A DNA stretch of 64,000 nt from an uncultured Acidobacteriota bacterium (GTDB taxonomy: Bacteria; Acidobacteriota; Blastocatellia; RBC074). This document shows, piece after piece, positions 9,782-48,558 of the stretch (within the stretch, counting starts at the first letter, position 1; each line of letters opens with the position of its first letter). The stretch spans positions 1 to 64,000 of the forward strand of contig CAWCKY010000003.1 of the NCBI GenBank assembly GCA_963796275.1, read 5' to 3'. The position numbers were made by a program, and so were the translations under genes. The notes beneath the pieces are model-generated. The model was given only the letters and a program-made list of their open reading frames with translations. It was not told the origin of the DNA and did no database searches.

Positions 9782-9812
9782 CCACTATGGGGGCGTGGCT
9801 CAGCGATTCGTT

Positions 9813-10319
9813 ATGAGCGCATTAAACAAAGAAACACGCATCGTCCAAAACCCAGCTCTGGGAGCGGTGTTGCTTTGGCGGTTTGTTAAGGGCTATTCAG
9901 AAGGTAGTGGGATCAGTGCTCCGACGCCGATACCTCTTCTATACGTTCTACTTCCCATTATTTATCATCAGGAAACCGCCTCGTTCGTAAAATCAACCCA
10001 GAAAGCATCCGGTTTAAGAGCCTTTGTCCACAAGTTTGATGAGACGAAAACGTCGAAGAGCGATTTAATCCTCGCGATACATAACCGTGCAAAAACAATG
10101 CGAGGCCTGACCCGCCATTCTTTGAGTTTAGCCATTGCGTCTAACTTGATTGCTGTAGATGTTCGATCAGGAACAGTTTTTCCCATCACGAAAACTCAAC
10201 CGAAAGCTGGAATACCAAACTCCGTAAGCGACATGATCAAAGCCGCCGAGAAGTTAGGATTTTGGTGCTCTAAACTCACACTGCACGAAATATCGATCAC
10301 GTTGAAAGTGGCATTCTAA
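9813..10319 (+). CDS. lmuC: Lamassu/ABC three-component middle component
   Basis: QNPALGAVLLW, LYVLLPIIYH, AEKLGFW. ~170 aa between effector and ATPase; ATG at 9813 (ORF track starts at 9795). Confidence 0.8.
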   Translation: MSALNKETRIVQNPALGAVLLWRFVKGYSEGSGISAPTPIPLLYVLLPIIYHQETASFVKSTQKASGLRAFVHKFDETKTSKSDLILAIHNRAKTMRGLTRHSLSLAIASNLIAVDVRSGTVFPITKTQPKAGIPNSVSDMIKAAEKLGFWCSKLTLHEISITLKVAF

Positions 10320-10321
10320 TA

Positions 10322-24634: not shown

Positions 24635-25846
24635 ATGGCTACAACGCACGATCTCCAATCGATCAAACCATCACTCGACAAACTGCAAGCCATTGAGCGC
24701 GAGTTGACCGCGACGCTCATCGAACGCGATGAGGTCATTCGTGCATCTCTGGTGGCTCTGCTCGCCCGGCAGCACCTGGTCGTTCTCGGGCCGCCCGGCA
24801 CGGCAAAGTCAGCTCTGGTCAGCGAACTTTCACAACGCATCAGCCCGCAAAACGGCGCAGGGCTGCGAAACTTCGCTTACCTGATGACGCGATTCACAAC
24901 GCCGGAAGAACTCTTTGGCCCTGTATCGGTCACTGGGCTGAAGCGCGACGAGTATATGCGCATCACAACAGGCAAGCTGGTCGAGGCCGAACTTGTTTTC
25001 CTCGACGAAATCTTCAAGGCGAGCAGCGCGATTCTGAACGCTCTCCTCAGGATCGCCAACGAACGCGTCTTCCACAACGGCGGCCAGGAGATGCAGGTCC
25101 CGCTGATCTCGCTCTTCGGCGCGAGCAACGAGATGCCGCAGGGCAATGAACTCGAAGCGCTCTGGGATCGATTCCTGCTGCGCTTCCGAGTCGGTTATGT
25201 CAGCGACACCGGATTCGCCAGATTCATACGTGCGGCTTCCGCAAAACTTGGCGCGAAGCAGAACGGTCACAAGCCAAATGGAGGTCAGCCGATGACACTC
25301 TCGCAATCAGAGCTTGTCGTGCTGCAGCAAAGCATGGAACACGTCATCATTCCGAGCGCGACTATCGATTTGATCGAGCAGTTGCGTAAAGACCTCGCGG
25401 GCAAAGGAATCATCATCAGCGACCGGCGATGGGGACAGACTCTCGGCGTGTTGCAGGCCCACGCGATCACGGAAGGGCGTGTCGCGGTGACCGAAGATGA
25501 CCTGGTCTTTCTCAAACACGTCCTGTGGCAATCGTTCGAACAGCAGACCGAGATCGGCAAGGCGCTCGCTCGCATCGGCAATCCGCTCAATTCTAAAGCA
25601 GTGGATTACGAGGACCAGGCAGCGTCAGTACATCGTGAATGCATGGACGTGCAGCATGCTGCGCAGAGCGAGGAGCATAAGATGCAGGCGGCGATCGAGG
25701 CCAACACGAAGCTCAAACAGATCGGCGTGAAGTTGCAGGAACTGCGAGAGCAAGCTGCTGAGCAGGGGCGCAATACGAATCGCATCGACAAGGTGATCGA
25801 GGCCATAGTGAAGATGAAGCAGGAGATCGCCTCGCTCGTTCTTTAA
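24635..25846 (+). CDS. MoxR/RavA-family AAA+ ATPase
   Basis: GPPGTAKS, TRFTTPEELFGP, FLDEIFKA, GASNE, ALWDRFLLR, SDRRW. Confidence 0.9.
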   Translation: MATTHDLQSIKPSLDKLQAIERELTATLIERDEVIRASLVALLARQHLVVLGPPGTAKSALVSELSQRISPQNGAGLRNFAYLMTRFTTPEELFGPVSVTGLKRDEYMRITTGKLVEAELVFLDEIFKASSAILNALLRIANERVFHNGGQEMQVPLISLFGASNEMPQGNELEALWDRFLLRFRVGYVSDTGFARFIRAASAKLGAKQNGHKPNGGQPMTLSQSELVVLQQSMEHVIIPSATIDLIEQLRKDLAGKGIIISDRRWGQTLGVLQAHAITEGRVAVTEDDLVFLKHVLWQSFEQQTEIGKALARIGNPLNSKAVDYEDQAASVHRECMDVQHAAQSEEHKMQAAIEANTKLKQIGVKLQELREQAAEQGRNTNRIDKVIEAIVKMKQEIASLVL

Positions 25847-25866
25847 CCATTCAACAGGATGAGCCA

Positions 25867-27489
25867 ATGGACACAATCAGCGAACAACACCAAGAGCCGG
25901 AACTTGTCGCCGAAAGGGAAGAAGTGGAGATCATCGCAGGCTCGATTACGGATGGCAGCCAGGCAGTCGCGCATGATGGGTTCGATGTAGAGACCTTCGA
26001 GCAGGCGGCGGATGACTACACGCGGCTAGCCCGGACAGTTGAAGAGACGGGGAGCGCGATCCGCACCGGTCCAGCGCTTTTGCGCGACCTGTTCTGGAGC
26101 TTTCACAAACGCGCGCCGCGTATCGCGCCGGTCGCTCCGCTCTCTCCGGCGCACGAGATCAACCGTGAGATCATCAAGCAAATCTTCTCCACGACCGAGT
26201 GGCGCGAGATGCGGGAGAGCGGCACGGTGGGCGATCCATTGTCGAGCGCGATGGCGACAATCGGATGTGCGGCTTCAGCTATAGCCGCGCTCGACAAAGA
26301 GACGATCCGGTATCTCAACCAATTGCACGAACTGGCCGGCGAAGTCGATCGATTGTTTGCCCACGCCGAATCGCTCGACGAATTGGCGGCGCTGTCGCCG
26401 GATGAGGGACGGTCGGATAGGTTGAAGAGAGAAGCCGCGCAAGCGAGAGCCGACGCGGCAAAGAAAGAGAAGAGGGCGGAGCGTCTGAACCGCAAACTGG
26501 AAGAGTCGAGCGAAGATCGCGAGCAGAAGGTGCGCCGGGCCGTGCGGCGAGGGCTGGCCGAAGCGATGGCTGAGGTCGAGCAGGCCAATGACGCGATCAA
26601 GGCATTCGGCGGCGGTTACGACACCGGCTTTGGAACGGAGAACGGCGCGGGCGGACGAAATTCGCTCTCTACAAAAGAGAAACTCGTCATTGCGCAGCAC
26701 GTGGGACGGTCGCCGAAACTGCAACAGATCGCTGCCGTTTGTGGGCGTTTCACTCGCATCGCGCTTCAGCAACAGAAGTCTCACGTCAAGCATCCGCCCG
26801 ACGAGATCACATCGATCACCACGGGCTGCGAAATTGAACGTCTACTGCCGAGCGAGATCGCATTGCTTGCAGATGCCGACCTTGAGGACCTCTTCTATCT
26901 CAAATTCGCCGAACGAGGCCTGATGCAATACGACCTGATCGGCCACAAGCCAGAAAGCCAGGGGCCGATCATCACCGCCATTGACGAGTCGGGGTCAATG
27001 ATGGCCGACTACGGAGGGATGACTGGTGAGGTTTGGAGCAAAGGGGTGGTGTTTGCTCTGCTTTCAATCGCTCGGCTGCAGAAGCGCGACCTGGCCGTGA
27101 TCCATTTCTCCGGCCCGGACGATTTGCGGCTAGACCTGTTTCCAAAGGGTGAGGCCACGCCAGCCCAGGTGATCGCCTGCGCCGACTTCTTCTTCAACGG
27201 CGGGACGGTCTTCGAGCCGTGGATGGAGAAGGCGCTGGAGTTGATAGACGGATCGCAGTTCGAGAAAGCGGATGTGATCTGCGTCAGCGACGGCATCAGC
27301 GACGTATCGATGGAAGCGCAGGCGGAATGGACAAGGAGAAGAGCGGAACGTGGTATGCGGGCATATGGAGTTCTGATTGGCGCGAATCAGGGCGAGGCGC
27401 TACTCGATGAAATCAGCGACGCGGTCTTTCGTCTCGATGACCTGCGCGGTGATTTGCCGGCGCTCCAAGTGATCTTCTCCGCTGTCTAA
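25867..27489 (+). CDS. VWA-domain protein (ViaA-like partner of the AAA ATPase)
   Basis: Coiled coil, RLLPSE, MIDAS motif IDESGSM, GGT, VSDG. Confidence 0.9.
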   Translation: MDTISEQHQEPELVAEREEVEIIAGSITDGSQAVAHDGFDVETFEQAADDYTRLARTVEETGSAIRTGPALLRDLFWSFHKRAPRIAPVAPLSPAHEINREIIKQIFSTTEWREMRESGTVGDPLSSAMATIGCAASAIAALDKETIRYLNQLHELAGEVDRLFAHAESLDELAALSPDEGRSDRLKREAAQARADAAKKEKRAERLNRKLEESSEDREQKVRRAVRRGLAEAMAEVEQANDAIKAFGGGYDTGFGTENGAGGRNSLSTKEKLVIAQHVGRSPKLQQIAAVCGRFTRIALQQQKSHVKHPPDEITSITTGCEIERLLPSEIALLADADLEDLFYLKFAERGLMQYDLIGHKPESQGPIITAIDESGSMMADYGGMTGEVWSKGVVFALLSIARLQKRDLAVIHFSGPDDLRLDLFPKGEATPAQVIACADFFFNGGTVFEPWMEKALELIDGSQFEKADVICVSDGISDVSMEAQAEWTRRRAERGMRAYGVLIGANQGEALLDEISDAVFRLDDLRGDLPALQVIFSAV

Positions 27490-29212: not shown

Positions 29213-30309
29213 ATGAACATCAAGGTTGATCGCAATCTGTTCCTGGGCGAGCTCTACTACCTGCAGGGCGTAGCCGGGACAAAACAAACCATTCCAATTC
29301 TCTCGCATCTGCTGATCCAAACCAGCCATGGCAAAATCGCGATGCGCGCCACGGACCTCGACCTGACGATCACGACAGAATGTGAGGCCAGCGTGCGAGA
29401 ACAGGGATCAATCTGTCTGCCAGCACGCAAATTGATGGAGATCGTCAAATCGCTACCGCAAGCCGAAATCGAAATCAAAGGCAATGATCTCTACCAGGCT
29501 ACGATCAATTGCATCCCTTCGCGGTTCAAGGTGAATGGTCTGAGTTCCGATAACTTTCCGGACTTGCAGAAGTATTCAGGCGAATTCGCCAAAGTTCCCG
29601 CCGAAATCTCTCGCGCTTCATCCCGCGCGTCCTGCACGCCGTGGGACAGGAAGGCTCGCGCTACACACTCAACGGCGCGAAGCTAGAAATCTCAAACAAA
29701 CGAATCCGAATGGTGGCGACCGACGGTCACCGGCTGGCGATGGTCGAGCGCGAGGGGCGTTTCAACGAGAGTCTCGATGTCCTGATTCCGAAGAAGACGC
29801 TTACTGAGCTTGACCGGCTATGCGCTGATAGCGACGAAATGTTGAGAATAGGCAAAGCCGATAACCACATTCACTTTTATATCGGCAAACGCCGGCTTAT
29901 CTCGCGGCTGCTCACCGGAATCTATCCTGATTACGTCGCTGTGTTGCCGAAAGAGAACTTCAACCGCTTCACGGTCGACCGCGGAATGATCACACCCGCG
30001 GTCAAACGTGTTTCGTTAATGGCCTCGGATCGTTCGCGCGCGATCAAGCTGGAGATCGATGTAGGCCAGATGCGCATTTCCTCGGAGTGCCCCGAGATCG
30101 GTGAGGCGGGTGAGACTATTCCGATTGATTACACAGGAAATCGGATCACGGCGGGTTTCAACGCCGCGTATCTCAACGATTTCTTCCACGCGATTGAGGA
30201 GGAGGAAATCCAGTTCGAGTTCAAGGATGGTAAGAGCCAGGCGCAGATTAAGGTCCATACAGCGGATCAAGACCGCTGTCTTGCGGTTGTGATGCCGATG
30301 CTTTTGTGA
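29213..30309 (+). pseudogene. dnaN: DNA polymerase III beta sliding clamp, single frameshift
   Basis: TIPILS, ATDLDL, MVATDGHRL, IPKKTL, YPDY, GFNAAYL, VVMPM; frame change at ~29605. Confidence 0.9.
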
Positions 30310-32102: not shown

Positions 32103-33059
32103 ATGACGCGCCATCCGCACAATTCCATGTTGGCCAAAAAAAATATGACACTCGCATCCATTTACAAATCCGTCAGACCTTCGATCGTCGCGTTCGTGTC
32201 GAAGTTCGCTCCCGCTTATGACAAGACAGAACCGCCTCCGCTATTTCCGTCGATTATCGGTACTGGATTTATCGTGGATAGCCACGGCATCGTCGCAACA
32301 AACTCACATGTTGTTCGTGCGATCGCCAATGTACCGAGACCATCGGATTTTCCTCCTGACAAATGGCCGGTTCACGCCATTCTTTTTCGCATCACCGAAG
32401 CAGGCCAGCTCGAAATACCGCTTGAAGTGGCGGGTGTATCCCAGATCACCAAAATTAGTGCTGGAAAGGCATATTACGGGCCGAAAGAAGGACCGGACCT
32501 TGGATTTGTCGTTTTGAAGGTGAAGGGCTTGGTGCCTTTGCAGATTGATGATGAGACCGAAGTCGAGGAGGGTATCGAAGTCGCTACTGCAGGTTACCCC
32601 ATGGGCACGGATGCTCTAACAGCACCCGGTTGGTTGCATCAGCTCACTCCGACACTACAAAAGGGAATTGTTAGCGCCGTGCTCCCGTATCCATGCTCGC
32701 GGCCGCACGGCTTCTCCATCAACATTATGACTCAGGGAGGCGCAAGTGGATCGCCAGTTTTTTCTTGCACGACAGGCCGGATCCTTGGCGTTCTCTATGC
32801 AGGGCTCGACGATTTTGATGAGACATTGGATCAGAAAGATTTATACCGAGTGCCTACTGCAATCAGCTATGTCGTGCCTTCACATTACATTGCCCCAACT
32901 CTCGAAAGTATGAAAGGCAATCCGGACTTTAAGATGCCAGCAGACGCAATTACCATCGACGAGATGCTGCAGCGAGGCACAATCATCAATACGTTGGAAG
33001 AGGGTCGAGAGTGGAAAGTATGGCAAGAAGCCAAAAAGCCCACCGATGAAGACCGCTAG
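32103..33059 (+). CDS. Trypsin-like serine protease with no evident signal peptide
   Basis: GTGFIV, TNSHV (His), PDLG (Asp), AGYP, GASGSPV (Ser). Confidence 0.9.
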   Translation: MTRHPHNSMLAKKNMTLASIYKSVRPSIVAFVSKFAPAYDKTEPPPLFPSIIGTGFIVDSHGIVATNSHVVRAIANVPRPSDFPPDKWPVHAILFRITEAGQLEIPLEVAGVSQITKISAGKAYYGPKEGPDLGFVVLKVKGLVPLQIDDETEVEEGIEVATAGYPMGTDALTAPGWLHQLTPTLQKGIVSAVLPYPCSRPHGFSINIMTQGGASGSPVFSCTTGRILGVLYAGLDDFDETLDQKDLYRVPTAISYVVPSHYIAPTLESMKGNPDFKMPADAITIDEMLQRGTIINTLEEGREWKVWQEAKKPTDEDR

Positions 33060-33071
33060 GGAAAGGGTCAA

Positions 33072-34007
33072 ATGTCTGTTCTTCAGAAAGTATTTCTACA
33101 CACACCAGCGCGCAGCCCGGCTGTTGTTCAAGACTACGAAAGACAACATCGTGAGGAAGGCGAACAACTTGACTTCAAGGCCATAGCCTGGGAGAAGGGC
33201 AAAAGTTTGGAGGCGGCAAAGGATGTGGCTGCTTTCGCTAACCATCTTGGTGGTGACATTATCATCGGCATTAACGACAAAGGAGACCGTGCCGATGGAT
33301 GGAACCCAATTCCGAACGCCGACATTCCCGCCACCATAAGAAACATTCGCGACTGGCTCATTAAACATATTCGCCCGCAAGAGGTTGCTGAAATAGTAGA
33401 CATAGAGCAGGTGGTAGCACCGCAGCCGGACTCTTCAGTGCTCGTAGTATCTATTCCACCCTTCCCCCAATTAGTCGGCATCGAGGACAGAGAGACAGAC
33501 AAGATCATCCTTCAATTTCCTATTCGCACCGGAAGGCGCATACGATGGCTTACTTTTGATGAGATTATGACCAGAACATCCACATCGACGCGAGGGACCT
33601 ATATCAAGCTCAAAGCATTGGCGGACAGCATTGGCCCTTACACTAGAATAAGTTTTACTAGTCCCGTTCTAGTTGTCGCCGGTGATGAACTGAAAGACCT
33701 ATTAAAGCAAGGCCGCATTCATTGCGAGATTGTTGAACTGACGCCCGATGTCATAAAAGTAACGATGAACGGCTCAGAAAACTCTTTACATGGACGACAA
33801 TGGCATCCTAATGGGACTGAGACCATGTCACACCCTGTGACCGTTGAGGCCGGTCATAAGCTAACGATTCCTCTTGAGTTCGTTAGAGCAGTCTGGAAAG
33901 ACCAAAAATCCATCTCGCAGATTGAACATTTGTCCATCGCCCTATCCGCTAACATTGTGTGGAATGGTGACTACTGGAGTTTTGTAACCGGCACACTCTC
34001 ACATTGA
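33072..34007 (+). CDS. Schlafen/AlbA_2-domain protein
   Basis: EGEQLDFK, KDVAAFANHLGGDIIIGIND, PIRTG; starts 12 bp after the protease stop. Confidence 0.85.
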   Translation: MSVLQKVFLHTPARSPAVVQDYERQHREEGEQLDFKAIAWEKGKSLEAAKDVAAFANHLGGDIIIGINDKGDRADGWNPIPNADIPATIRNIRDWLIKHIRPQEVAEIVDIEQVVAPQPDSSVLVVSIPPFPQLVGIEDRETDKIILQFPIRTGRRIRWLTFDEIMTRTSTSTRGTYIKLKALADSIGPYTRISFTSPVLVVAGDELKDLLKQGRIHCEIVELTPDVIKVTMNGSENSLHGRQWHPNGTETMSHPVTVEAGHKLTIPLEFVRAVWKDQKSISQIEHLSIALSANIVWNGDYWSFVTGTLSH

Positions 34008-36295: not shown

Positions 36296-36790
36296 GTATA
36301 GATACCGAAATCTTTGATGTTGATACGAGCCGAATAAGAAAAAGCGCTTGCATCCGTGGGATAACTGCAAGCGCTTGAAATTTGGCGGCCACCTTCCTCA
36401 CCCTGGCAGCCCCCTGACACCGTTCAGTGGAGTTAACCACCTGGTATCTCGTTGCCCCACTTTGTCTATCGCAACGACGGTGCCAGAGAGTTCCACCTGG
36501 GGATGAACGCGAGAAGCCTAATAAAATCAGGCGTTCTGGTGTTCTTCGATATTTTCTCGTGTGGTCTCAACCGAGCATTCAAGCAATTCTTACACGATCC
36601 GCTGGGAAGTTTTTTCCTTACCGCAAACAAGAAGGGCCTACATGTTCGAAATCTGTGACTTCATGATCCGGATGCGCCAATCCTTGGGGCCACAGCGATG
36701 CCATTACATTCGCTAGGCCGCGGCCAGCCGAACTGATCGAAAACGCGCCGAGTGCCATGCTTTGCTTCTTTCCGTACGGTAGTGGTTAAA

Positions 36791-36858
36791 GCCGAACGGC
36801 AGACTTCACCTGCGCGCGGAGCAAAGCGAAGCGCGACAGGTGGAATCCATAGTTCGCT
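36791..36858 (-). other. Integron-type attC recombination site
   Basis: Minus strand: AGCGAAC-TATGG-ATTC[C]ACCTG[T]CGCGC-loop-GCGCGCAGGTGAAG-TCTGCC-GTTCGGC. It has AAC/GTT cores, 5- and 6-bp spacers and two extrahelical bases, and lies 17 bp after the Avs stop. Confidence 0.75.
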
Positions 36859-36875
36859 GGTATCAGCCCTTGCTG

Positions 36876-39800
36876 TCAGTACTTCATTTTATGGAGCTTG
36901 TTAATCGCACCAGGATAAAGCTTAAAATCCAGCGAGTTATCAATTCGGACGACCGCTGTCGTATGCAAATACTGGCTGCCTAGGCTACCAATGCCTTTTT
37001 CGTACCGACGCAGTCTGACGAGCACTAATAACTCTGCCCTTCGCTTCATCAGTACGTCTTTCAGGAAACCCGAACTGCAAACTAGTCGTTTGGCGCTAAT
37101 CGATTCTTCTTCGTCGTACGCAGAATTGCGGCCCCACGCCTCCGATCGCGCCGCTACTCGTCCTGTTGGATCGCCCCACGTTCGCCTAAAAGGGTCCAGC
37201 GGCTTCAGTGCGCCGATCTCGTTTATGGCCTTCGTGAAGTAAAGCCGCCGTACTGCAGCAGTCACGCCGAGTAGATCGGTTTCATCTAGTCCTGCCTCGA
37301 TGTGAGGCCAGACGACCCATGGCTCATAAGGCTCTTTCTCAGAGAGTGAGTATTCATCGCCATCGTCGCGTTCTTCGGCCCGCGGCAGCCACGCTCGAAA
37401 GGGGTCTTCTTGAGACAACTGAAGCGCCAATTTTTTAGCAAAGCGAGGAGGCGCCAAGGCTGACCAAATGTCAATCTCAATTCCATCAGCCGAGCGCCAG
37501 TCACCAGCGACTACAACTTCCTCTCCTATGGATGATTCGATATTCAAGAGAGATAGAAGCTTTGCCTTGTCACCGGTGAGGACGAGCCCTTTATCTCCTA
37601 TCTCATAGAGGTTAACTTGTGCGCCCACTGGTGGCCTATCGACTCCGTCTGCAAGCCACAGCCCGTTCCTTCTCGTGAGCGATTCGTGCCTCAGCCACTC
37701 GCGCCAGGGATCGTTGTCATCAAATGGACGCTGAACGACTGGATATTTTGCTAGGAACTCGCCCGCCACGAGGTAGAGCGCGTGCCATCCCAGTTGCTGC
37801 CCGTAGAGATGATACCGGTCGGTCATTTCTCTTAAGCGGTCTCGTTGACGGACAGCACGTCCGCCGCTTTCGTACATGCTCTTTACCTGCGGATCGTATT
37901 TTCGCACCCAGGCGGTTATGGCATCCTTTGTTTCCCACCTTGATCTGTCAAACATACCGCTCACCTTGGCGACATCATGTTTGTCGAAATCATAGTCCAG
38001 GTTGAAATCGAACCCTGGCTTCGGCATCGAGCCCGGGCGCTTCTTGTAAATTGAGTCGCGCTCGTACTGCTTCGTCTTTTTCATCGGGAAGGGCGAAGCG
38101 TTGACTCTCTTTAGCGCCTTGATGTCACCTTCCGACAGGACAATCCTACCGCCACTCACGCAGGCTAAGAGAGTACGCGCGGCGAAGTGGCGCATCAGTA
38201 CATGTGGCACATTCGTACCTAACGCGACGGTCTTCAGCGTATCGGCATACTTCGTTACATTCTGCGGATGATCGATTGCCACTCGGGCAAGCGCAATTAG
38301 CAGCCAAAGCCGCGCGTGCAGATAGTAAAAGGGCAGTTCCGGTGCTTGATACGGATGGGCGTCCGTGGAATGAAATCTTCCGATGAGCGCGTCGATCACT
38401 TCCCACTTACCAAGCCTTGCGAAGCATCGGATGCTGTGGGCCGCCCTCCAACGATGTGCAGCGGAAGGCGAGCCGAGCGTGCGCCACAAGAGGCCTGCCG
38501 TAATATCCGTTTCTCCGCCTTTCGGATAGAGACCGTCCCTCCATACGCCGTCAACTACTGTTGATGCCAACTTCGCAGAGTTGCTATTCAGCAATCGCTT
38601 GAGCGCGATTTGACCCTCGCCATGTTTGGCCTTCTCACAAATGATTGCCGTAAGACCCATCCAGGTTGATGCAGGCAAGTGTGAATCCGGTGACGCGAAA
38701 ATCGCGATCAATTCGAGTGCCAGTACTGGCACCGGGATCCCGGACAGTTCGGTAATATCCTTCAGTTTGGAACCGGAGAGATAGTCATGATTAACAAAGT
38801 CATTTGCGTGAATCTGAATAAGCGGCTCTGCGATATCGCGGAATACTTTTCGCAAAGCCGCTGAAGAGTCACTCCATTTCTCCTTGCACTCCCTCAACAC
38901 GCGCAGTTTTGTGTAGATATCGAGGATCTCAAGCCGAGAGATGATCTGGACATATTTCGGCCTTTCTTCATATTTGAGCTTTCCCCGAAATTTATCGAAA
39001 AACTCGTTCTTAAAGGCATAGACGTACTGCAAGTTATTCAATGCATCGATAGCCCGCGCCATTGACTCCTCGTCGGCCGGGTCCGTTTCATTACCAATCT
39101 TCTTCATGGCGCGCCGGGTTTCTTCTTCCTGGTCGTTTGCCGCCTCTGCGGAGCGGAGATATTGCGGGCCGCGATAGTTTCGGTTCTCACTCTCTTCGTT
39201 GCGCAGCTTCTCGAACTTCTGCGCGGCGATGGAGAGATAGGTCGTTAGCTCGGAGTCCTTGTCTAGTTCGCGCTCGGCAATTTTGCGGAGCGTTGCAAGA
39301 GTGCTAGGCATGAAAACGCCCGAGTGATTCTGTTCGAATTGCAAGATCAGCTCGGTCAATAGAGCCTTCGAATTCGGATATCGCTTTTCGGCGATTACTT
39401 CTGCAAGTTGTGCCGTACCGCAGGAGTACAGTTCTACAGGAGCCGATAGGCGAAGCAGCCCCAGAGCAATGGCCGGGTCGATCTTGTCCTGCTCAATGAG
39501 TGCCATGAGGTAAGGCAGCAACGTATAGTCCAGAGTACTCTTGTCGCGGTCATCCCAACGCCCTAGTTTCGCGAGCGACCTGCATCCTGAAGTCCTAGCC
39601 AATCCCCTTGCGAATTCCAGCCAGGGAAACTTATCTTGTTCATAGATGTTGAGTTCGCAAATGTTTGAAAGCGTGTGAAAGTCGCCTTCTTCAAGCTCGT
39701 CGCCCCGTAACTCCGCTGCATAGAGCAACAGTTCGCTAGTGAACTGGTAATCGCCTGAGCCTATAGCGTCCATCTGGTCAAGACCGAGGCGGAAGTAGGC

Positions 39801-42800
39801 GGCCGTCTCCTCGACACTTGCAGGCATGATCGCCCTGGACAACTCCGCGAATAGAGATGCCCGTCGACTGACTTCATCCTCGAGCTCAATAAGGGACTTC
39901 GCACTCAGCGCAATTTTCCCCGCCAGTTCCTGAAGGTCCAACCTTTTCGCGAGAATTGCGATGATCTTAACAAGCGTTGATACCGGTGCGATGCCTGCCT
40001 CGCTGACCTTCGCGACAAATACCTCAGTGGAAGAGCCTTTAAGATCGCTCCGCGCCCAGATAGCAAAAATCAACAACTGGCGGCCTAGCAGATCAAAAAA
40101 CAGGCTCCTTTCGTGACGGTCCGAGTAACGGTCCCGCTTCATTCTGAACTTTGCCCACAACTCAACCAACTCCAGGAATGGCTTGTCGCCCTTCCCGGCA
40201 CCAGAGGAGAGCATTTTCGTGAACGCCTGGGCCATCTCAAATAATGTCTCAAGCCGCTCATCGATAAAATGCTCCGCCTCCCTCTTAGTTTCATAGCGCA
40301 TGGGCTTCTTTTCGGCTGGCAATCCCTGGTGTGACTTGAATTCCTCCTCCAACTCTTTTTTGAGCGTCTTCCGGAAAGCCTCCCCTTTCGTACCCTTCGG
40401 AACGCGCGCACCGAAATCAACGAGTTCCTGTGGCAAAAGTGTATACTCAGCAATTGGTTGGCGCTCCACAGCAGCGCGAAGGGCCATATAGGCGATAAAA
40501 GGAAACACATCCTTAGTCGAAAAGTGATCCACGAAGTACCAGAGGCCCGGCCTTTCGTTGGAAATAGTTTCCGCGATTGCAAGCGCCTCTGCGCGCATTT
40601 TCATTGCGACCGCGACGGCGGTAGCTTTCAGCATGCCGTCTTGAATGGGATCCATTTCCCGGAGGAACCCCTCACTCTTTTCAATGGTTTTCTTCTTTTC
40701 GCAAGCTTTGGCAAGCTCTCGAATCATGCGTCGGCGCGCAGCGTTGTCGAGTTCCATGAAGGAGAGAGCGGCTGCGAGGATGCCGCGTTGCGATTTAAGC
40801 GAATCCAGAAAGCGGCGAATGTTGGCGGTCGGAACTGTTTCCATTCTCTCCGCTTGGTGCAGCAACGTGAAGATATGTTCAGCGACTTCGTATGCGTACC
40901 AATCCTTCCATCCTTTCATGAATTGCGCGGCATCTTGCCCTCGATCCTGGGCGACAAGGCATACGGGTATTGACGCGATGTCGAGCCTTTCCGGCCCGCT
41001 TCTGTCTCTGCGGTATTCATCGTCCTGCCGATAGAAGTGATGAATCCATTCATCGGCGTTTACAACATGCCGGTACGCGTCGCTTAAGTCGCCGGACAAG
41101 ACGCTTGCAATCGTAAGTCTTGCGTAGCGTGTTCCGGGCCATTGTGTACGCGTCTCGAATAGTCGTCTGGTCGCATCAATGTCGTGGGATGCTATAACCA
41201 GATCGGGATTGTCCAGCACATACTCCGTGCCACGCTGGTTAACAGCAGCGAGGGTTGATAGCTCCACCAGCAAATGGACAAGACGGTCGAAATCTTCCTT
41301 CCTGGCGGCATGAAGTACAGCGGCTTTGAGTCTTGCGTAGCGTATGTTCTGCTTGCCAACAGTGCTCGCGATCGCTGTTGGAAACCGCTCATCGAATGCC
41401 AACTTGAATAACAACTTCCCATCATTAAGCTTCTGAAGCAGGCCTGGAAGCGCGCTCGCCGCATATACCGATGTTCCTTGCTTTTTGAAGAGGTTCCTGG
41501 CGAGGGCGCGCAGAGTGTCTGCTTTGGCAGCGTAAACATCACGAACAACCGTTTCAGTGGGTTCATCGCGGAACATCAATCCATGTCTTGTCTGCTCTAG
41601 CAGAGGTGCCAAGTCCGTCGCGAAGCTTCTTACTGCGCTTAGGTCCATTCCGTGAGCATCTGCGTACTCATAAAGCGGAACGGGCGGCGGTAAGATCGAC
41701 AGACCGGCGAGAAACGCGTTGATTTCACGTTTCTTGTAGCCTCGTTTCAATGCTTCGCCGAGCGCCTTCTGAATGCGTTCCTTTAAGAGGTCGTCCAGTT
41801 TTATTACGTTATTGAGCTCCGCCGACTCAAGAAGGCCTCTGTCGCTCAGCGCAAGGTGTTCGAGTATTCGGGGGTTCCCTTCAGATCGTGAATAGGCGAC
41901 CTGAATTTGAGCATCGGTCACTTTCGGAATGCGGTCACGGAGATACTTCTCCGTTTCTGCGGGGCTGAAGGGATTTAGTTTGAATTCTTCACACGGAACG
42001 TCGCCTCTGGAGATGTCACGTCGGTAGGTTCGACAACTTACGATGAGCTGTACTCCGTCAACAGGGCCGCTATGGTGGAAGCTTTCGAGCAAAAGCCTCG
42101 GAAAAGTCGGCTCACCCTTGTCTTTTGCATGTTCGGCGGCGTTGTCTATAGCATCAATGAACAGCAGGAGTTGTTTGTCACCCGATCCTCTCTGCAGCGT
42201 GGCAACTGCCTGAGAGAGGCGGGCTCGGAAAGCTTTGACGAGTTCTTCAACGTTCTCATTGATTGGTAGGAGCGGATCGCACAAGCCATCGCACGCAAGG
42301 CTGTTAATGATGTGGATTAGGCCACGCTTCGGAAGATGCCGCGCATCTTCAGGCGCTCGGTAAGCGCCGCCGCCAAAGCAATCGAACAGAACTGTTTCGT
42401 GAGTCTCTCCCAGTATCATCGCGAGGCTTTGAAGAAAGACAGTTTTCCCAACGCCGCCATCGGCGTGAATCAGGAGCGGCTTGTCTAGTTTGGGAATTTT
42501 GCCGCCGAGGGCTGATAGCTGTTCGCGCTCAACGACATTGCCGACTTCAGGAAAGCTGGCCGGGCAAGGAAAGAGGTCATCGGGGCTTTGCAGTTCCAAG
42601 GCGTCGAGAACGTCTGTCCGCGTTATAACGTTTTGTCCTTCGCCTGCTAGGCCTGCCTTTTCCCGGAGCAACTGTCTCAAGTTGCCCAATCTGGCCCGCG
42701 CCATAGCGTCAGGAGCAACCGACCAATCGGCGAGAACGAGGGAAAGATGTTGCTTGTTTTGTCTCAAGCTACCAGCTAGGCCAGTGATCCTGACCTTCTG

Positions 42801-43349
42801 CGCGAACTGAGTGAGTTCCTTGCCCTTAATCCCACACGCGGACGCGAACTGAGTGGCTTGCCTTCTTGCGTCCGCTTTCAGCGGTTTTCCCACCGCCACA
42901 CCATCTATTGCTTCGTGGAATTCATGGGCGACGGGCCTGTTCGTTATCAGCTCAAAAGTGAGCTTTTTTTCTACATCTTTCGCCCCATACTTCCTCTTGA
43001 GGCTTCTGAATGCTGCCGCGAACTTGCGAATCGTCTTCCTGGCATCACTCACACGGTACGGAACTCTCTGCGAGCTTTTCGAGTATTTGACCTGGACAAT
43101 GACGACCGCGCCTGCATCTCTAAATGTCGGCCCCTTTCCGTAGTACAGAACAAGGTCAGCGATCTCAACTGTTTCCGCCGAAGCGCCTGCTTGGTCGGCA
43201 GGTGCGAGCCCTTCGACAGCAATTCCCACAAGTTCATCGGTTGGCATGACGAGCTGAAGCGCCTTGCGCGCCGCCCACGCCTCATGAAACTCGTGGCCGT
43301 CACGGGAAGCTCTTACCTTGTCTATTCGCGGACGAAGGGTTTTCATCAT
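36876..43349 (-). CDS. Avs3-like (AVAST) STAND NTPase with an N-terminal PD-(D/E)xK nuclease and a long helical sensor region
   Basis: N-terminal SRDGHEFHEAWAARK, IADLVLYYG, QVKYS; Walker A ADGGVGKT; Walker B FIDAIDNA; GNPRI; 2157 aa intact. Confidence 0.8.
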   Translation of the reverse strand: MMKTLRPRIDKVRASRDGHEFHEAWAARKALQLVMPTDELVGIAVEGLAPADQAGASAETVEIADLVLYYGKGPTFRDAGAVVIVQVKYSKSSQRVPYRVSDARKTIRKFAAAFRSLKRKYGAKDVEKKLTFELITNRPVAHEFHEAIDGVAVGKPLKADARRQATQFASACGIKGKELTQFAQKVRITGLAGSLRQNKQHLSLVLADWSVAPDAMARARLGNLRQLLREKAGLAGEGQNVITRTDVLDALELQSPDDLFPCPASFPEVGNVVEREQLSALGGKIPKLDKPLLIHADGGVGKTVFLQSLAMILGETHETVLFDCFGGGAYRAPEDARHLPKRGLIHIINSLACDGLCDPLLPINENVEELVKAFRARLSQAVATLQRGSGDKQLLLFIDAIDNAAEHAKDKGEPTFPRLLLESFHHSGPVDGVQLIVSCRTYRRDISRGDVPCEEFKLNPFSPAETEKYLRDRIPKVTDAQIQVAYSRSEGNPRILEHLALSDRGLLESAELNNVIKLDDLLKERIQKALGEALKRGYKKREINAFLAGLSILPPPVPLYEYADAHGMDLSAVRSFATDLAPLLEQTRHGLMFRDEPTETVVRDVYAAKADTLRALARNLFKKQGTSVYAASALPGLLQKLNDGKLLFKLAFDERFPTAIASTVGKQNIRYARLKAAVLHAARKEDFDRLVHLLVELSTLAAVNQRGTEYVLDNPDLVIASHDIDATRRLFETRTQWPGTRYARLTIASVLSGDLSDAYRHVVNADEWIHHFYRQDDEYRRDRSGPERLDIASIPVCLVAQDRGQDAAQFMKGWKDWYAYEVAEHIFTLLHQAERMETVPTANIRRFLDSLKSQRGILAAALSFMELDNAARRRMIRELAKACEKKKTIEKSEGFLREMDPIQDGMLKATAVAVAMKMRAEALAIAETISNERPGLWYFVDHFSTKDVFPFIAYMALRAAVERQPIAEYTLLPQELVDFGARVPKGTKGEAFRKTLKKELEEEFKSHQGLPAEKKPMRYETKREAEHFIDERLETLFEMAQAFTKMLSSGAGKGDKPFLELVELWAKFRMKRDRYSDRHERSLFFDLLGRQLLIFAIWARSDLKGSSTEVFVAKVSEAGIAPVSTLVKIIAILAKRLDLQELAGKIALSAKSLIELEDEVSRRASLFAELSRAIMPASVEETAAYFRLGLDQMDAIGSGDYQFTSELLLYAAELRGDELEEGDFHTLSNICELNIYEQDKFPWLEFARGLARTSGCRSLAKLGRWDDRDKSTLDYTLLPYLMALIEQDKIDPAIALGLLRLSAPVELYSCGTAQLAEVIAEKRYPNSKALLTELILQFEQNHSGVFMPSTLATLRKIAERELDKDSELTTYLSIAAQKFEKLRNEESENRNYRGPQYLRSAEAANDQEEETRRAMKKIGNETDPADEESMARAIDALNNLQYVYAFKNEFFDKFRGKLKYEERPKYVQIISRLEILDIYTKLRVLRECKEKWSDSSAALRKVFRDIAEPLIQIHANDFVNHDYLSGSKLKDITELSGIPVPVLALELIAIFASPDSHLPASTWMGLTAIICEKAKHGEGQIALKRLLNSNSAKLASTVVDGVWRDGLYPKGGETDITAGLLWRTLGSPSAAHRWRAAHSIRCFARLGKWEVIDALIGRFHSTDAHPYQAPELPFYYLHARLWLLIALARVAIDHPQNVTKYADTLKTVALGTNVPHVLMRHFAARTLLACVSGGRIVLSEGDIKALKRVNASPFPMKKTKQYERDSIYKKRPGSMPKPGFDFNLDYDFDKHDVAKVSGMFDRSRWETKDAITAWVRKYDPQVKSMYESGGRAVRQRDRLREMTDRYHLYGQQLGWHALYLVAGEFLAKYPVVQRPFDDNDPWREWLRHESLTRRNGLWLADGVDRPPVGAQVNLYEIGDKGLVLTGDKAKLLSLLNIESSIGEEVVVAGDWRSADGIEIDIWSALAPPRFAKKLALQLSQEDPFRAWLPRAEERDDGDEYSLSEKEPYEPWVVWPHIEAGLDETDLLGVTAAVRRLYFTKAINEIGALKPLDPFRRTWGDPTGRVAARSEAWGRNSAYDEEESISAKRLVCSSGFLKDVLMKRRAELLVLVRLRRYEKGIGSLGSQYLHTTAVVRIDNSLDFKLYPGAINKLHKMKY

Positions 43350-43775
43350 CCTTCTTCAGTCTGATCGGATCCGTCGCAGTTGATCATCTACGGTATGCCG
43401 AAGCGATCGACGAGCATATCAATCGCGGGGCCCAGAGTCTTCTTGATCGGCATCACGACCTTACCGCCCTCGGTCAGCGTTAAAGATACGCTCGGCGTCG
43501 GTCGCGCTGTTGATCTGAAGAGTGAGCGAGAAGCCCTTTGGTTCCTCATAATGATCCGGTGCCGCGTCGGCGCCCATCAACACTTGGTCGCCGATTGTCA
43601 TGCTGCCGTGCATAACCTTGTCCGACCAGGCGGCCGGAACCTGATTCGACAGAGGCATCCCGGAGTAACGGAAGATCGCCCCGGGTTGGCTGCCGAGGCA
43701 CTGCTCATAGAAATTGATCGCTGCTTCGCATTCTCCCTTGAAACTCAGATACGGATTCACTGGATGGTAAATATT
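43347..43775 (-). pseudogene. VOC/PhnB-family (glyoxalase-like) protein, disrupted
   Basis: VNPYLSFKGECEAAINFY, KVMHG, MLVDRFGIP*MINC. The start is lost and there is a frameshift and an in-frame TAG; the final TGA overlaps the Avs ATG. Confidence 0.8.
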
Positions 43776-43926
43776 TTTTCTACGATAGATTTCTGTTTTG
43801 CTATCAGCCCAGCCGAACGATGTGCGGTGGAACTCGGTCGGAGTCACCTCAATCACGCGCCACGAACTGGTTAATTCTAACGATCACTGCGCGGCTCCAA
43901 ACACCAAAAACGGCAAATTTATCCTT

Positions 43927-43962
43927 CAATGTTTCGCCATCCGGCAATGTTTCTCCATCCGG
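43927..43962. repeat. 18-bp tandem direct repeat (2 copies, 1 mismatch)
   Basis: CAATGTTTCGCCATCCGG CAATGTTTCTCCATCCGG in a divergent intergenic region. Confidence 0.7.
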
Positions 43963-44069
43963 TCTCTTTTGTGAGTCATAGATTTTTGCTGTGAATAAAA
44001 AAATGAGCGTGGCTAGGCGAAGCGCAGGCACGCTCAAAACTAAATTAATTCGTAAAAGGAGAATAACAC

Positions 44070-45755
44070 ATGTCACGCAGAATCGAGAACACTCGTCGTT
44101 CAAATCACAGCATGTTCCTTCCGCAAAATTACGGATCGCCTTTCAACGACACAGCGGAGCATATCTCGGGTCTCGGCCTGGGACGGCTCGACTTCGAACG
44201 CGGCGCAGTCGTGGGAGAGGTGATTTACACCGTCGAGGGCGATTCGACGCCCACGAGCCAACAGGAGGAAGAAGCGCGCATCGCAACGCTTGCCTATGCG
44301 CTCAAGAAACTCGGTAATCCGGAGGATGCCGCAGAGTTCATGCGCTGCCTAAACGAAATCAGCAGAGAAGGTGACGCGCGCTACCGGCAAGTTGTGGCCT
44401 CCTACTACTACGGCGAGATCGCCGAGCGTGGCCTTGGCGTTGTCCTTAAAGAGATGGCGCTCATCGCCATGCACCTCGCCAGCCTCAATCCGGTTATGGA
44501 AGAAATGGGGAGCGACACCGAAATTGTCTATGCGTCGCATGGGGAATCGAAGCCGCGGTCGCTCTTCGATCTAGAAGTGGCTACAGTCAAACGGATGATC
44601 CGCGGTCGCCGAAAGAGCGCGCGATTTGTCCACGATGAGATGACAGAGTGGTTGAACGATCTGGAATCGAGCGGCGCAACCATCGATGAACTCGATGATG
44701 CATTCGCGCACGTCGAAGCGTTGGATCAATACGATGAGGGCGGCGCGATCATTCAGATGTCCGCGCACGAACGCACAGTCACCTGCGGACGCGTCGATCC
44801 CGAATTCTCGGTTGAAGACCTGCCAGAATGCGCTCGTTATCTTGCCTACGAACTTCGCCGCACCTACGCGAATGGGCTTGCAATCGAGAATATCGGGGAC
44901 GAGATCAACACGGAGCTCGAGATCATCTTTCCGATCAGTGTTAATCTCGATCTGCCCAAAGACAGCTTTCCGTCGAATCTGACGACGGGGCGCACCGAAC
45001 GGATCTCGATCTATCGCCGGCCGAGATTCATATCTCAGGCCAATCGCGAGCTTCAGCAATTTACCCGGCAGGCGCTCGAAGCCATCCTCAATGAATGCGA
45101 GCAAGATTTTCATATGACCGCGCTGCGCAATAATCGTTCATATCGCAACTTCTACACGAGGATTCGCCACGCGACCGATACCGAGACGATCAGCGAGTTG
45201 AAGAAGCAGGCATTTGATGCCCGTCAGAATGGCGAGATGTCAGTCAAACATTTCATCGCTCTCAATACGGCTGCGGATAATCAACGTGAACGGTTGTTGT
45301 CGATGCCGCTCTCAGCGCCTGCTTATAAGCTCATCGAGGAGATCGTCACCGCACTCGAGAGAAAGCTGGGGTATCTCGCCTGGGCGATGTACGGCGCCAA
45401 TCAACCCGCACATCAAATCCACATGCTTAATTCGAGTGAACAGACACGCGTTTGGGAGGTGATGACGGCTCGTAAGGCGGCGATTTTGCTCCCACGACTC
45501 TTTGCGAAGTTGCTCTCAACGTGGGGGCAGGCGCTCCCAGGCGACTGTTTTATCTTCCTGGCGGCGTTCAGTGAGTTCTTCGAACTGCCGCGACTGCGCA
45601 AAGCGTTAAGCGCCGTTCGGAACAAAAAGCGATTCTCTGTTCGGGAGGCCTCCTCGGCTCCGAGGCAGTCAGATCCAACACCTGGACACTCTGCGGTGAA
45701 AAGTGGCGCTGTCGCAAGATTGCGCACGCAGGCTGCGTCCTGCGTACAGCAATGA
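44070..45755 (+). CDS. Large hypothetical backbone protein
   Basis: 561-aa intact ORF, AGGAG RBS; no motif recognised. Confidence 0.75.
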   Translation: MSRRIENTRRSNHSMFLPQNYGSPFNDTAEHISGLGLGRLDFERGAVVGEVIYTVEGDSTPTSQQEEEARIATLAYALKKLGNPEDAAEFMRCLNEISREGDARYRQVVASYYYGEIAERGLGVVLKEMALIAMHLASLNPVMEEMGSDTEIVYASHGESKPRSLFDLEVATVKRMIRGRRKSARFVHDEMTEWLNDLESSGATIDELDDAFAHVEALDQYDEGGAIIQMSAHERTVTCGRVDPEFSVEDLPECARYLAYELRRTYANGLAIENIGDEINTELEIIFPISVNLDLPKDSFPSNLTTGRTERISIYRRPRFISQANRELQQFTRQALEAILNECEQDFHMTALRNNRSYRNFYTRIRHATDTETISELKKQAFDARQNGEMSVKHFIALNTAADNQRERLLSMPLSAPAYKLIEEIVTALERKLGYLAWAMYGANQPAHQIHMLNSSEQTRVWEVMTARKAAILLPRLFAKLLSTWGQALPGDCFIFLAAFSEFFELPRLRKALSAVRNKKRFSVREASSAPRQSDPTPGHSAVKSGAVARLRTQAASCVQQ

Positions 45756-45931
45756 TTAATCTCTTCAATGGCGCAGACCCGCCTCTGATGATTCCATCAG
45801 TTTCCACCATTCACTCAACTGCGTGATTCATAAATTGGAGCTGCGCGTAAGCCTGTGAGCGGGCGGGGCAAGCGCCTCGCCTCGCGCTCAACAATTTCAA
45901 TCTCAATCTTGATCTGAAAGGGGTATGAACA

Positions 45932-46423
45932 ATGTCTTTTAATAAGATTACCATCGTCGGGTATCTGGGGCGCGACCCGGAATTACGTTACACGCCGCAG
46001 GGAACGGCCGTTTGCAATATGTCTGTGGCGACGACCGAGAAACGCAGGAGCGCATCGGGCCAGGCCGAAGAGCACACGATTTGGTTCCGCATCACGGCCT
46101 GGGGGCGCCAGGCTGAGACGGCTGCCGAATACCTGGCTAAAGGGAGGCAGGTCTATATCGACGGGCGGTTGCGTCTCGAACAGTACACCGACCGTGAAGG
46201 CAATCTGCGCATCAGCCCAGAGGTCAATGCCACCGACATTCACTTTCTGGGTCAGAATGCCGGGTCTGTGGAGAAGGCCGAGGATATCCGCCAGGTCGAT
46301 GAAGAGACAGAGAACGGGGAGGCCCCAAAGCCCGCTACGTCCAGAAACGGTAAAAGGTCGACCTCGAAGCTTGCTTCAACCAAAGAGCCCGTCGGCATTG
46401 AGGCTGACGAAATTCCGTTCTAG
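45932..46423 (+). CDS. ssb: Single-stranded DNA-binding protein
   Basis: NKITIVGYLGRDPELRYT, KGRQVYIDGRL, C-terminal DEIPF. Confidence 0.97.
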   Translation: MSFNKITIVGYLGRDPELRYTPQGTAVCNMSVATTEKRRSASGQAEEHTIWFRITAWGRQAETAAEYLAKGRQVYIDGRLRLEQYTDREGNLRISPEVNATDIHFLGQNAGSVEKAEDIRQVDEETENGEAPKPATSRNGKRSTSKLASTKEPVGIEADEIPF

Positions 46424-46491
46424 CGTGGGTACTTTGCTAAGTGTCCACTTATTCTCGCTGATATACGCAAAGTGTTATCAGGCAATGATGT

Positions 46492-46532
46492 AGCGCCGAG
46501 GAGACCTACTTCTCGGCGCTTCCGGTTTATTT
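46492..46532 (+). terminator. Probable terminator hairpin after ssb
   Basis: AGCGCCGAG...CTCGGCGCT stem followed by a T-rich tract. Confidence 0.5.
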
Positions 46533-46614
46533 CTAAGAAAATGTGGTAGGGGATAATAACTATCTGCCCACTTTCCCATAAAGATGCTACTTTCCCGCAT
46601 GTTAGCTGGAAGGC

Positions 46615-48063
46615 TTGACCTCACGATTTAAACATGTGCGAGTGAAAGTGAACATCACGCAAAAAGTATCAACCCGTAGATTTTCTGTGATCAATATCGT
46701 TCTCGACAATGGAGAACGTCTTCCCTGTTTGGTGGACGCTGAAACCTGGGAACCTGTCCGCGTAGCGACCAGGTGGGCAGTTCGTTATCGGCGATATCAC
46801 GTACAATCCTCCACCCTTGCCAATAACCTTCGGATTCTCCGGCGTGTCTATGCTTGGGCTTCGGATGTGGGCCGGTTTGATCTCGATGATTTTCTGACCT
46901 CAGGTACTCGGCTCAACGCTCGTCAAATAGAATCCCTGGTTCATTATCTCCGCATCAAGGGAAGGACAGTAATTGCCGGAGTCATCACACCCAAAAATGA
47001 AGATCAACAACCGGAATCGATACTTGATGCAAATGAGTTCAATCACTGTCTCGATGTGGCTGGGGAGTTTTTCAAGTGGTCTCTCGACAGCGCCAACCGA
47101 GGCGGGGTTTCCAATTTCACCTTGGAACAATTGATGGCTGAGCGGGCCGCGCTGGAGAGAGCATTCCGATCACACCATATTCAGACACGAGCATCGGAGC
47201 GCATTCAACCTTTAGAAGAACATGAAATTGAGACTATCAGGCGTGTGATTGCTCCTAAACAAACTGACTCGGGTAGATGGGAATTCCCAGAGAAAATTTT
47301 CTCCACGGCCACGAGGCTCAGGAATTGGTTGATGTTTGAAACTGCTCTTGAGCTGGGTTTGCGCCGTGGAGAGTTGCTCAAACTGCGTCTTGATTGTTTG
47401 CCTCGAGGCAGTGATGACGGCATAAAAATCTTGAGGCACGCTGACGATCCGCACGATTCCAGAACTAAAGAGCCAGCCATGAAAACGACCGAAAGAGTAA
47501 TTCCATCTTCGCGCTCGCTACTCTTAGCCTTTCGCGCATATTTGACCATGCCTGCCCCAGAGGGTCGTGTCACAGGCAAAAGTCCGTATCTCTTCGTGAC
47601 TCAAACGGGCGCCCCTGTCTCAGAAGAGACCGCCAACGACATCATCGCCAAGATCGGGCGATACAGTGGAGTCGTTCTTTTATCTTGGCACCGCCTCCGT
47701 CATACCTGGGCTGAAAAATGCGCTGAAATTTATGCCGAGCAACCAAACGGCATGGACAAACTGATGTATCTCGGCGGATGGACCAATCCGCAATCACCCC
47801 GGCAATACATCAAACGTATTCTCGCCAGACAGGCAATTGAAACAATGCGAGCTGATTTCGATAATCTGATCCGCGATCTGGAAAATGAATTGGTGCTGGA
47901 ACGCGAGAAGAATAAAAAACTGGTCGCCAAAATCCAGATCATGGAAGCTAATGCTGGCAGGCTCGGCATTGATCCGGAAGAACTGCACAAGGTCATTCCC
48001 AAGCCGATTAGAACAGTCTCCAGAGCAGAATCATCTCACAAAAGATGGTTTGGCAAACGGTAG
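46615..48063 (+). CDS. Tyrosine recombinase (Tn554-like), apparently fused to an unrelated coiled-coil tail
   Basis: LGLRRGELL, KTTER, SWHRLRHTW, LGGW, PRQY. After ~47850 the sequence switches to a TnpC-like coiled coil. Confidence 0.85.
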   Translation: MTSRFKHVRVKVNITQKVSTRRFSVINIVLDNGERLPCLVDAETWEPVRVATRWAVRYRRYHVQSSTLANNLRILRRVYAWASDVGRFDLDDFLTSGTRLNARQIESLVHYLRIKGRTVIAGVITPKNEDQQPESILDANEFNHCLDVAGEFFKWSLDSANRGGVSNFTLEQLMAERAALERAFRSHHIQTRASERIQPLEEHEIETIRRVIAPKQTDSGRWEFPEKIFSTATRLRNWLMFETALELGLRRGELLKLRLDCLPRGSDDGIKILRHADDPHDSRTKEPAMKTTERVIPSSRSLLLAFRAYLTMPAPEGRVTGKSPYLFVTQTGAPVSEETANDIIAKIGRYSGVVLLSWHRLRHTWAEKCAEIYAEQPNGMDKLMYLGGWTNPQSPRQYIKRILARQAIETMRADFDNLIRDLENELVLEREKNKKLVAKIQIMEANAGRLGIDPEELHKVIPKPIRTVSRAESSHKRWFGKR

Positions 48064-48072
48064 GTTAATGTC

Positions 48073-48558
48073 ATGGCCAAACGAAAGAGCACCCTGCTGG
48101 GATTGCAAAAGAGTGCACAGGCGAAAAGCCAAGCGGCTTTTGAACAGGCGAGCGAAGCCATCAGATCGCTCGGTGCACGAGGATTGCCGATCGACTTTCA
48201 GGCCGTCGCTAGGGAGGGGAATGTCTCAGTTGCGTTTCTATATAAGAATGACGACCTCAAAATGCTGATAGACGAACTTCGTGCAGTACAAAAAGTAAAC
48301 CGGTGTTTGTCCTCACTCGACTCTAGCAAGCTAAGCGGTTTGATGGTCGATCAATCGACGGAACTTCGGCGGTTGCGTGAAGAAAATGATGATCTACGGA
48401 AAGTCAATCAACAACTGAGGGAACAAAACCAGGAGTTGAAAGCTCAATCTTCTCTAGTCGCGGCCCTGGAGCGACAGATTTACAGATTGACCAAAGAGAA
48501 GAACCTTCTGATGAATAAGATTATGTTATTGAATGAAGGCCAGGCGAATGAGAGCTAG
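48073..48558 (+). CDS. TnpC/DUF6262-family protein
   Basis: AIRSL...PIDFQAVAREGNVSVAFLYK.....IDELR followed by a coiled coil. Confidence 0.8.
   Translation: MAKRKSTLLGLQKSAQAKSQAAFEQASEAIRSLGARGLPIDFQAVAREGNVSVAFLYKNDDLKMLIDELRAVQKVNRCLSSLDSSKLSGLMVDQSTELRRLREENDDLRKVNQQLREQNQELKAQSSLVAALERQIYRLTKEKNLLMNKIMLLNEGQANES

Follow-up and report, generated by a model that had tools for sequence, protein, structure and literature searches.

Here, we analysed a 64,000-nt stretch of DNA (the window; contig CAWCKY010000003.1, from an uncultured Acidobacteriota bacterium) in which a 2157-aa Avs3-like antiphage gene on the minus strand is followed by a hairpin resembling an integron attC site. We found that the sequence on both sides of this gene is integron-derived, and in our reading the segment from about 43892 down to 36724 (minus strand) is probably a decayed piece of an integron cassette array, situated where the cargo of a mobile element varies. 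The fragment would consist, in this order, of an attC remnant (~27 nt), a leader, a VOC pseudogene, the Avs3 gene, an attC site and the start of a glyoxalase cassette (~72 nt). An original prediction had taken the region for one 7021-bp gene cassette (36797-43817), delivered into a conjugative element by an integron integrase (IntI) acting in trans. The large gene, its location on a mobile element and most of the attC geometry were borne out by our analysis; the 5' boundary and the delivery of a single cassette were not. The features of the fragment are listed below along the minus strand (handles beginning with G, C and L denote genomes, contigs and loci; G000 is the genome of the window).

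43860-43892, minus strand: what appears to be left of an upstream attC's 3' end, with the 3' arm, an L'-like AGTGATC and an R'-like GTTAGA/ATTAACC (alignments with L144 and L138)
43761-43871, minus strand: 5' leader of the VOC unit, containing site a; conserved in G081:C1 and G076, and partly in G060
43809-43818, minus strand: site a, GTTCGGCTGG, the 5' crossover of the original prediction; inside conserved sequence and complementary to the R'' flank of the attC
43346-43760, minus strand: VOC (PhnB/3-dmu-9_3-mt-like) pseudogene, from alignment to intact homologues
36876-43349, minus strand: intact Avs3-type STAND NTPase gene, 2157 aa, from profiles, SeAvs3 and full-length homologues
36791-36858, minus strand: very probable attC site (covariance models R2, 29.8 bits, and R1, 16.7 bits; DNA fold; single copy in the genome)
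36734-36796, minus strand: apparent start of a second cassette, with the 5' leader and opening codons (ATG 36758-36756) of a gene of the glyoxalase family; 87% identity to G081:C4 (L134)
36724-36733, minus strand: site c, where GTTCGGCTGG occurs for the second time and the glyoxalase homology ends, from sequence and alignment

The palindromic 68-nt site is separated from the Avs3 stop codon by 17 nt (36859-36875), and we are confident, judging from its sequence, that it is a genuine attC. The features looked for were complementary R'' (RYYYAAC) and R' (GTTRRRY) boxes, L'' and L' boxes with extrahelical bases, a length of ~57-141 nt and a covariance model score. The site is made up of R'' AGCGAAC, L'' TTCCACC, a 13-nt loop, L' GGTGAAG, the spacer TCTGCC and R' GTTCGGC, so that crossover would be expected between G 36797 and T 36796; its length and its L''/L' stem are those of an attC. 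The ends AGCGAAC and GTTCGGC are complementary, forming 5 bp and further pairs with one bulge in the DNA fold. Spacers of 5 and 6 bp had been predicted: the L'-R' spacer has indeed 6 nt, but the R''-L'' spacer also has 6, one base more than the 5 of the family. The R' box GTTCGGC is a minority, non-consensus variant: among 108 family sites, 5 have GTTC and 13 have an R'' of the CGAAC type.

Does this site resemble the attC sites of its own lineage? A textbook attC array with the boxes GCCTAAC-5 nt-TTGCACC ... GGTGAAC-6 nt-GTTAGGC lies at C6:1953380-1974509 of the same genome, beside a broken intI. We built one covariance model (R1) from nine attC sites of this chromosomal array and a second one (R2) from 108 attC sites of the genome's own chromosomal integron and of relatives, with the window site outside the training set; the R1-type family is present in 27 of 41 genomes searched (G000 and 40 relatives). 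The best match of R1 in the window was exactly 36791-36858 on the minus strand (16.7 bits, E 0.014). R2 scored the same interval at 29.8 bits (E 3.7e-5 in the window; covariance model E-values are rough, as the tool itself states), as against 10.1 bits on the plus strand and 14 bits for the runner-up in the window. The R2 alignment runs end to end and puts the two unpaired bases, the C of TTCCACC and the T of CACCTG-T-CGCGC, where the family has its unpaired columns. With filters off, R2 returned nothing above 14 bits outside real arrays in ~180 kb of other DNA. A dispersed or repetitive extragenic palindromic (REP) hairpin, the alternative named in the original prediction, was ruled out because blastn-short found a single full-length copy in the 9.46-Mb genome, all other matches being 13-17 nt long and due to chance.

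The chromosomal integron (G000:C6:1951000-1974509; L009, L010) comprises at least 14 attC sites and an intI pseudogene with several lesions. A search with an integron-integrase model identified the latter as the sole IntI-like gene of the genome (C6, ~1951000-1951950); it is frameshifted and contains stops, and it keeps an ALSRKYPNA...DPRSG...RHH stretch that we take to be IntI-specific. Thus, looking for intI elsewhere in the genome, as the original prediction had advised, yielded one gene, a pseudogene. Within the window no intI was found, so that the locus does not qualify as a complete integron (intI and attI beside an array). Further attC clusters or single sites occur at C1:1002267-1006943, C7:672384, C6:60788, C6:2815022, C2:683249 and C6:2831158. 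In arrays of the lineage, the distance between attC sites has medians of 690 and 767 nt and reaches at most 2234 and 4660 nt; beside these values, an attC-associated unit of ~7 kb is unusually large, as had been predicted.

The 5' flank of the unit speaks for an array rather than for an inserted cassette. Window 43892-43776 is 84% identical, without a break, to G081:C1 (L144 1494-1611), and the L144 stretch starts inside an attC (1437-1518, 43.3 bits) that ends a cassette lying after another attC (65.1 bits). In the alignment, the R' box of L144, GTTAGCC, falls on window 43866-43860, with GTTAGA just before it (43872-43867), and G076 (L138) has GGTGAAG-TGAAAC-GTTAGCC at the aligned place, ~105 nt upstream of an intact VOC gene. 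About 27 nt of an upstream attC would survive in the window, with R' ~50 nt beyond 43818 (43872/43866). R2 found no full attC at this place in the window, a mini-attC between 43867 and 43812 showed neither a fold signal (z 0.24 and 0.15) nor a covariance model match, and the stretch 43805-43900 folds no better than its shuffles. The sequence GTTCGGCTGG at 43818-43809 and its counterpart CCAGCGAAC at the start of the attC are present as originally described. Since homologous DNA in two related genomes crosses 43818 unbroken, this position appears not to be a junction between cassette and host, and homology to the element's backbone begins further out, at ~43935-43949. The true 5' boundary is likely 43872|43871 or 43866|43865.

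At the 3' end, the matching DNA is in G081:C4: window 36818-36725 aligns with L134 4947-5040 (87% identity over the blastn core). The aligned stretch comprises the 3' arm of the attC, L', R', a 38-nt leader and the first glyoxalase codons, so that the 3' half of the site is also present in that genome, in front of a gene encoding a 123-aa glyoxalase-family protein. In the window, this gene is cut after ~10 codons and becomes unrecognizable near 36724, leaving ~72 nt of the cassette. The rest of it was found neither in the genome nor in the sampled arrays, and no glyoxalase gene following VOC was found in relatives.

Is the block a single inserted cassette or a piece of an array? Both of its flanks are integron-derived, while an IntI-mediated insertion into the element's backbone would leave backbone on both sides of the G/TT position; we therefore favour an array fragment over the insertion of a single cassette. 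Formally, the fragment would hold one cassette of ~7.07 kb, from 43871 or 43865 down to 36797, with a ~105-nt leader, the VOC pseudogene, Avs3 and the 68-nt attC. Remnants of both junctions occur in G081, which suggests that the block shares ancestry with a chromosomal cluster in that genus; G081 has other attC sites and no intact intI. The block probably derives from an array of a chromosomal integron in this bacterial family, and would have moved onto the element as a fragment by a recombination not involving IntI. As a cassette the unit would no longer be mobile: with a truncated upstream attC and a single, broken intI in the genome, excision, and with it cassette mobility today, is unlikely.

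The setting of the block is that of a mobile element, as originally proposed. The window holds genes for a relaxase, a type IV coupling protein, SSB, a tyrosine recombinase, DUF6262, a PIN/MerR pair and DdrB, and the host element would be an integrative mobilisable or conjugative element. The tyrosine recombinase is not IntI-like and matches Xer models weakly. Next to the block lies one further feature:

43935-48558, plus strand: conserved backbone with a 561-aa gene, SSB, tyrosine integrase and DUF6262, common to Blastocatellia loci from metagenome-assembled genomes

Three such loci (L081-L083) share the backbone rightwards from ~43935-43949, with 67-71% amino acid identity in the 561-aa gene, and each carries different cargo to the left of this position. 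Different DNA left of a shared backbone places the array fragment in a variable cargo region; the break lies ~120 nt from site a and ~45 nt from the attC remnant.

By homology, the large gene is Avs3-like. Its product has no internal stop, an N-terminal nuclease-like region, a P-loop (DGGVGKT) and a Pfam NACHT domain, and many homologues match it over its full length. It matches Avs3a of PADLOC with E 2.8e-210 and SeAvs3 (PDB 8DGC) with E 4e-131 over residues 12-816. With SeAvs3 and Avs3a it shares a homologous N-terminal nuclease and STAND NTPase region; it differs in that it stays below the equivalog cut-off of the NCBIfam Avs3a model (821.7 bits against 2800) and in that only a second, weaker match covers the C-terminal sensor region. 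SeAvs3 has been described as a terminase-sensing STAND nuclease, and by analogy the window Avs3 would presumably have the same function, acting alone. Its closest relatives, on the metagenome contigs L147-L149, are 91% identical at the nucleotide level; homology is lost at 37105, ~230 nt before the stop, where the C-terminal end is replaced and the contigs run on into unrelated genes, which makes them uninformative on attC.

Upstream of Avs3 lies a 131-aa open reading frame (43461-43856, minus strand), in what the original prediction had called the VOC-Avs unit. VOC homology is indeed found there, but the gene is, by comparison with its homologues, a pseudogene. Intact VOC homologues from six related genomes (75-82% nucleotide identity) align only across two reading frames, and the lesions comprise a start region that has changed, a frameshift around 43479-43470 and an in-frame TAG (43390-43388) where the homologues have Trp. 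The read-through VOC stop codon TGA (43348-43346) overlaps the Avs3 start codon (ATGA).

This junction bears on a second history, in which Avs3 was secondarily captured into a small VOC cassette, between the VOC stop codon and VOC's own attC. The locus would then be a snapshot of a large defence gene gaining an attC. We regard such a capture as less likely than not; it is compatible with the array-relic reading, of which it would be a sub-history. In its favour, VOC homology ends at 43346 and Avs3 homology begins at 43349-43346, with no spacer between them. No VOC gene stands next to an Avs3 homologue at any of 70 loci, and none of 56 Avs3-homologue loci has an attC downstream (R1 and R2 with default filters; both models are lineage-specific, and attC sites of other phyla may escape them); whether homologous Avs genes are followed by attC was a check proposed in the original prediction. 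In addition, Kieffer et al. report defence homologues outside integrons without attC and propose recruitment from defence islands (10.1101/2024.07.02.601719). On the other side, no VOC homologue retaining its own attC was found in L138-L143 (R2, filters off). Conservation of non-coding flanks is in any event not to be expected among homologues at 64-78% identity. Among the 56 loci, only L059 (1702-9456; a Desulfobulbaceae metagenome-assembled genome) has an attC-like site, which scores 29.8 bits and lies after a 308-aa open reading frame; a 2159-aa Avs3 homologue follows 187 nt downstream of the site, with no attC detected behind it.

Several observations weigh against the array-relic reading. 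The 29.8 bits of the attC site are low beside the 36-84 bits of array attC sites, and they come from models of its own lineage only, R2 being lineage-specific and made by iterating R1. The site was not among the 150 of 2848 genome-wide candidates scored with R2; by bit score, its genome-wide E would lie between 0.0013 and 0.013. The upstream attC remnant is read from short alignments (~27 nt) to two loci. G081, which holds both junctions on contigs C1 and C4, far apart, shares ancestry with the block and cannot serve as an empty site, and the same cassette inside an intact array was not found in the relatives and homologue loci searched. Finally, the proposed cassette start TTAGAA/TTAACC (43871/43865) is not complementary to R'' AGCGAAC, whereas site a (43817/43818) is: GTTCGGCTGG at site a pairs 9/9, with one bulge, with the R'' flank CCAGCGAAC.

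This complementarity speaks for a modified form of the original model, in which an integron integrase put 7021 bp, from TT 43817 to G 36797, into a secondary G/TT site. Sites pairing so well with R'' number 748 in 18.9 million strand positions, which gives an expectation of 0.007 in the 173 nt upstream of VOC. Moreover, the 8-mer GTTCGGCT follows the attC crossover (36790-36797), the 10-mer GTTCGGCTGG recurs at 36733-36724, VOC homology of G060 begins at 43816, and insertion of cassettes at GWT sites of genomes is documented (10.1101/2022.09.11.507474). Nevertheless, the DNA is contiguous across site a in G081:C1, which has CTTCGGCTTGG at this position, and alignable in G076; there is no attC-like fold in the 48 nt upstream of site a (z 0.24), and no empty site was seen among 401 genomes of the class. 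A class-wide search of these genomes with 43770-43900 matched only G081, G060 (VOC leader) and two short stretches. As G081 and G076 share the flank, such an insertion would have taken place inside an older cassette or array and not in this element. We consider this model unlikely.

Same-strand copies of GTTCGGCT occur three times around the unit, at 36724-36733, 36790-36797 and 43809-43818, all complementary to the R'' flank of the attC, and two of them are GTTCGGCTGG, a 10-mer with two copies in the window (site a and 36733-36724) and 35 genome-wide. An earlier action of IntI at site a, in an ancestral cassette, or an IntI-mediated deletion at site c, would fit this R'' complementarity; excision outside the insertion point is described in the preprint that documents GWT insertion (10.1101/2022.09.11.507474).

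A bolder view is that the locus records a 6.5-kb STAND gene that was recruited into a cassette, fused to the VOC stop codon in front of an attC, and can still be recombined by an integron integrase from the same acidobacterial family. If true, it would be by far the largest single-gene defence cassette, and integrons could traffic full-size NOD-like receptor (NLR)-like sensors and not only streamlined systems; from the sequence at hand we hold this to be improbable. Least probable of all is that the hairpin is not an attC but a palindrome that arose by chance or the terminator of Avs3 transcription: the absence of an attC-like family match in Rfam (gathering and E-value modes; Rfam may hold no attC family), a fold z-score of only ~ -2, the modest covariance model score and the C at position 4 of R' would be in line with it, but the model match is strand-specific and end to end with unpaired bases at the family positions, the 3' half is conserved before a gene start in G081:C4, the other flank is integron-derived, and a classical terminator is ruled out by the sequence, which has no T-run after the stem.

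Beyond the glyoxalase break, the array fragment is bordered by a repeat:

36337-36616, strand not assigned: copy of a ~280-nt repeat bordering the array fragment, multi-copy across the family

It starts ~108 nt beyond the break and has many copies in 68 of 87 family genomes (a tally that includes G004). The copies are 75-92% identical; on the minus strand, the window repeat ends in a GC-rich hairpin with a T-run, and the RNA fold has a z-score of -3.3. In Rfam, the repeat gave a weak, sub-threshold match to Hrs10 (24.7 bits against a gathering threshold of 108); it could be a small RNA gene or an element resembling a miniature inverted-repeat transposable element. Elsewhere in the window (8579-12301, 24635-27489 and 32103-34007), we noted other defence-type genes of the same element, namely an ABC-3C-like set (CTD7, DUF3732), a MoxR of MoxR-vWA-beta-propeller ternary systems and a trypsin-like peptidase adjacent to a Schlafen/AlbA_2 protein. 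A gene for the DNA polymerase III beta-clamp (29213-30309) is present as two overlapping open reading frames, one with the N-terminal domain and the other with the central and C-terminal domains, which suggests a frameshift.

What does the locus add to the known systems? Defence systems in integron cassettes are established (10.1101/2024.07.02.601719; 10.1101/2024.07.02.601686). According to the second of these preprints, integron defence systems are smaller than those elsewhere, never have more than two components, and lengthy loci are absent; Avs is named there a single time, where a domain in common is pointed out (10.1101/2024.07.02.601686). A further preprint states that the recombination efficiency and recovery of cassettes drop with length (10.64898/2026.03.17.712381). 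Our literature search for Avs in integrons found no report, and supplementary per-cassette tables might list Avs-type genes among attC clusters that have no integron integrase (CALINs). The size of the unit would thus be unusual for a defence cassette, and the locus appears to be a relic that is probably no longer mobile. An intact Avs3 gene beside an attC indicates that an association with attC, at least, is possible for sensors of very large size, and the locus offers material for the open question of cassette birth.

Among the closest parallels are the BRiCs, the phage-defence cassettes of the preprints of Kieffer et al. and Darracq et al., in which a defence gene likewise stands directly before an attC and homologues elsewhere lack one. 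BRiCs are compact, whereas the window has a single 6.5-kb gene in a ~7-kb unit, known here from sequence. With one intact attC after a gene and no intI nearby, the locus corresponds to a SALIN (single attC site lacking an integron integrase) as defined by IntegronFinder. CALINs are thought to come from rearranged parts of cassette arrays (10.1101/2022.09.11.507474). The window locus differs from SALINs and CALINs in that its flanks keep parts of a second attC and of a next cassette, both truncated, which would make it a decayed piece of an array and not a lone insertion at a genomic site, and in that it lies on a mobile element; with its truncated attC, its pseudogene and its cut next cassette, it would provide a concrete case of an array fragment carried onto a transferable element.

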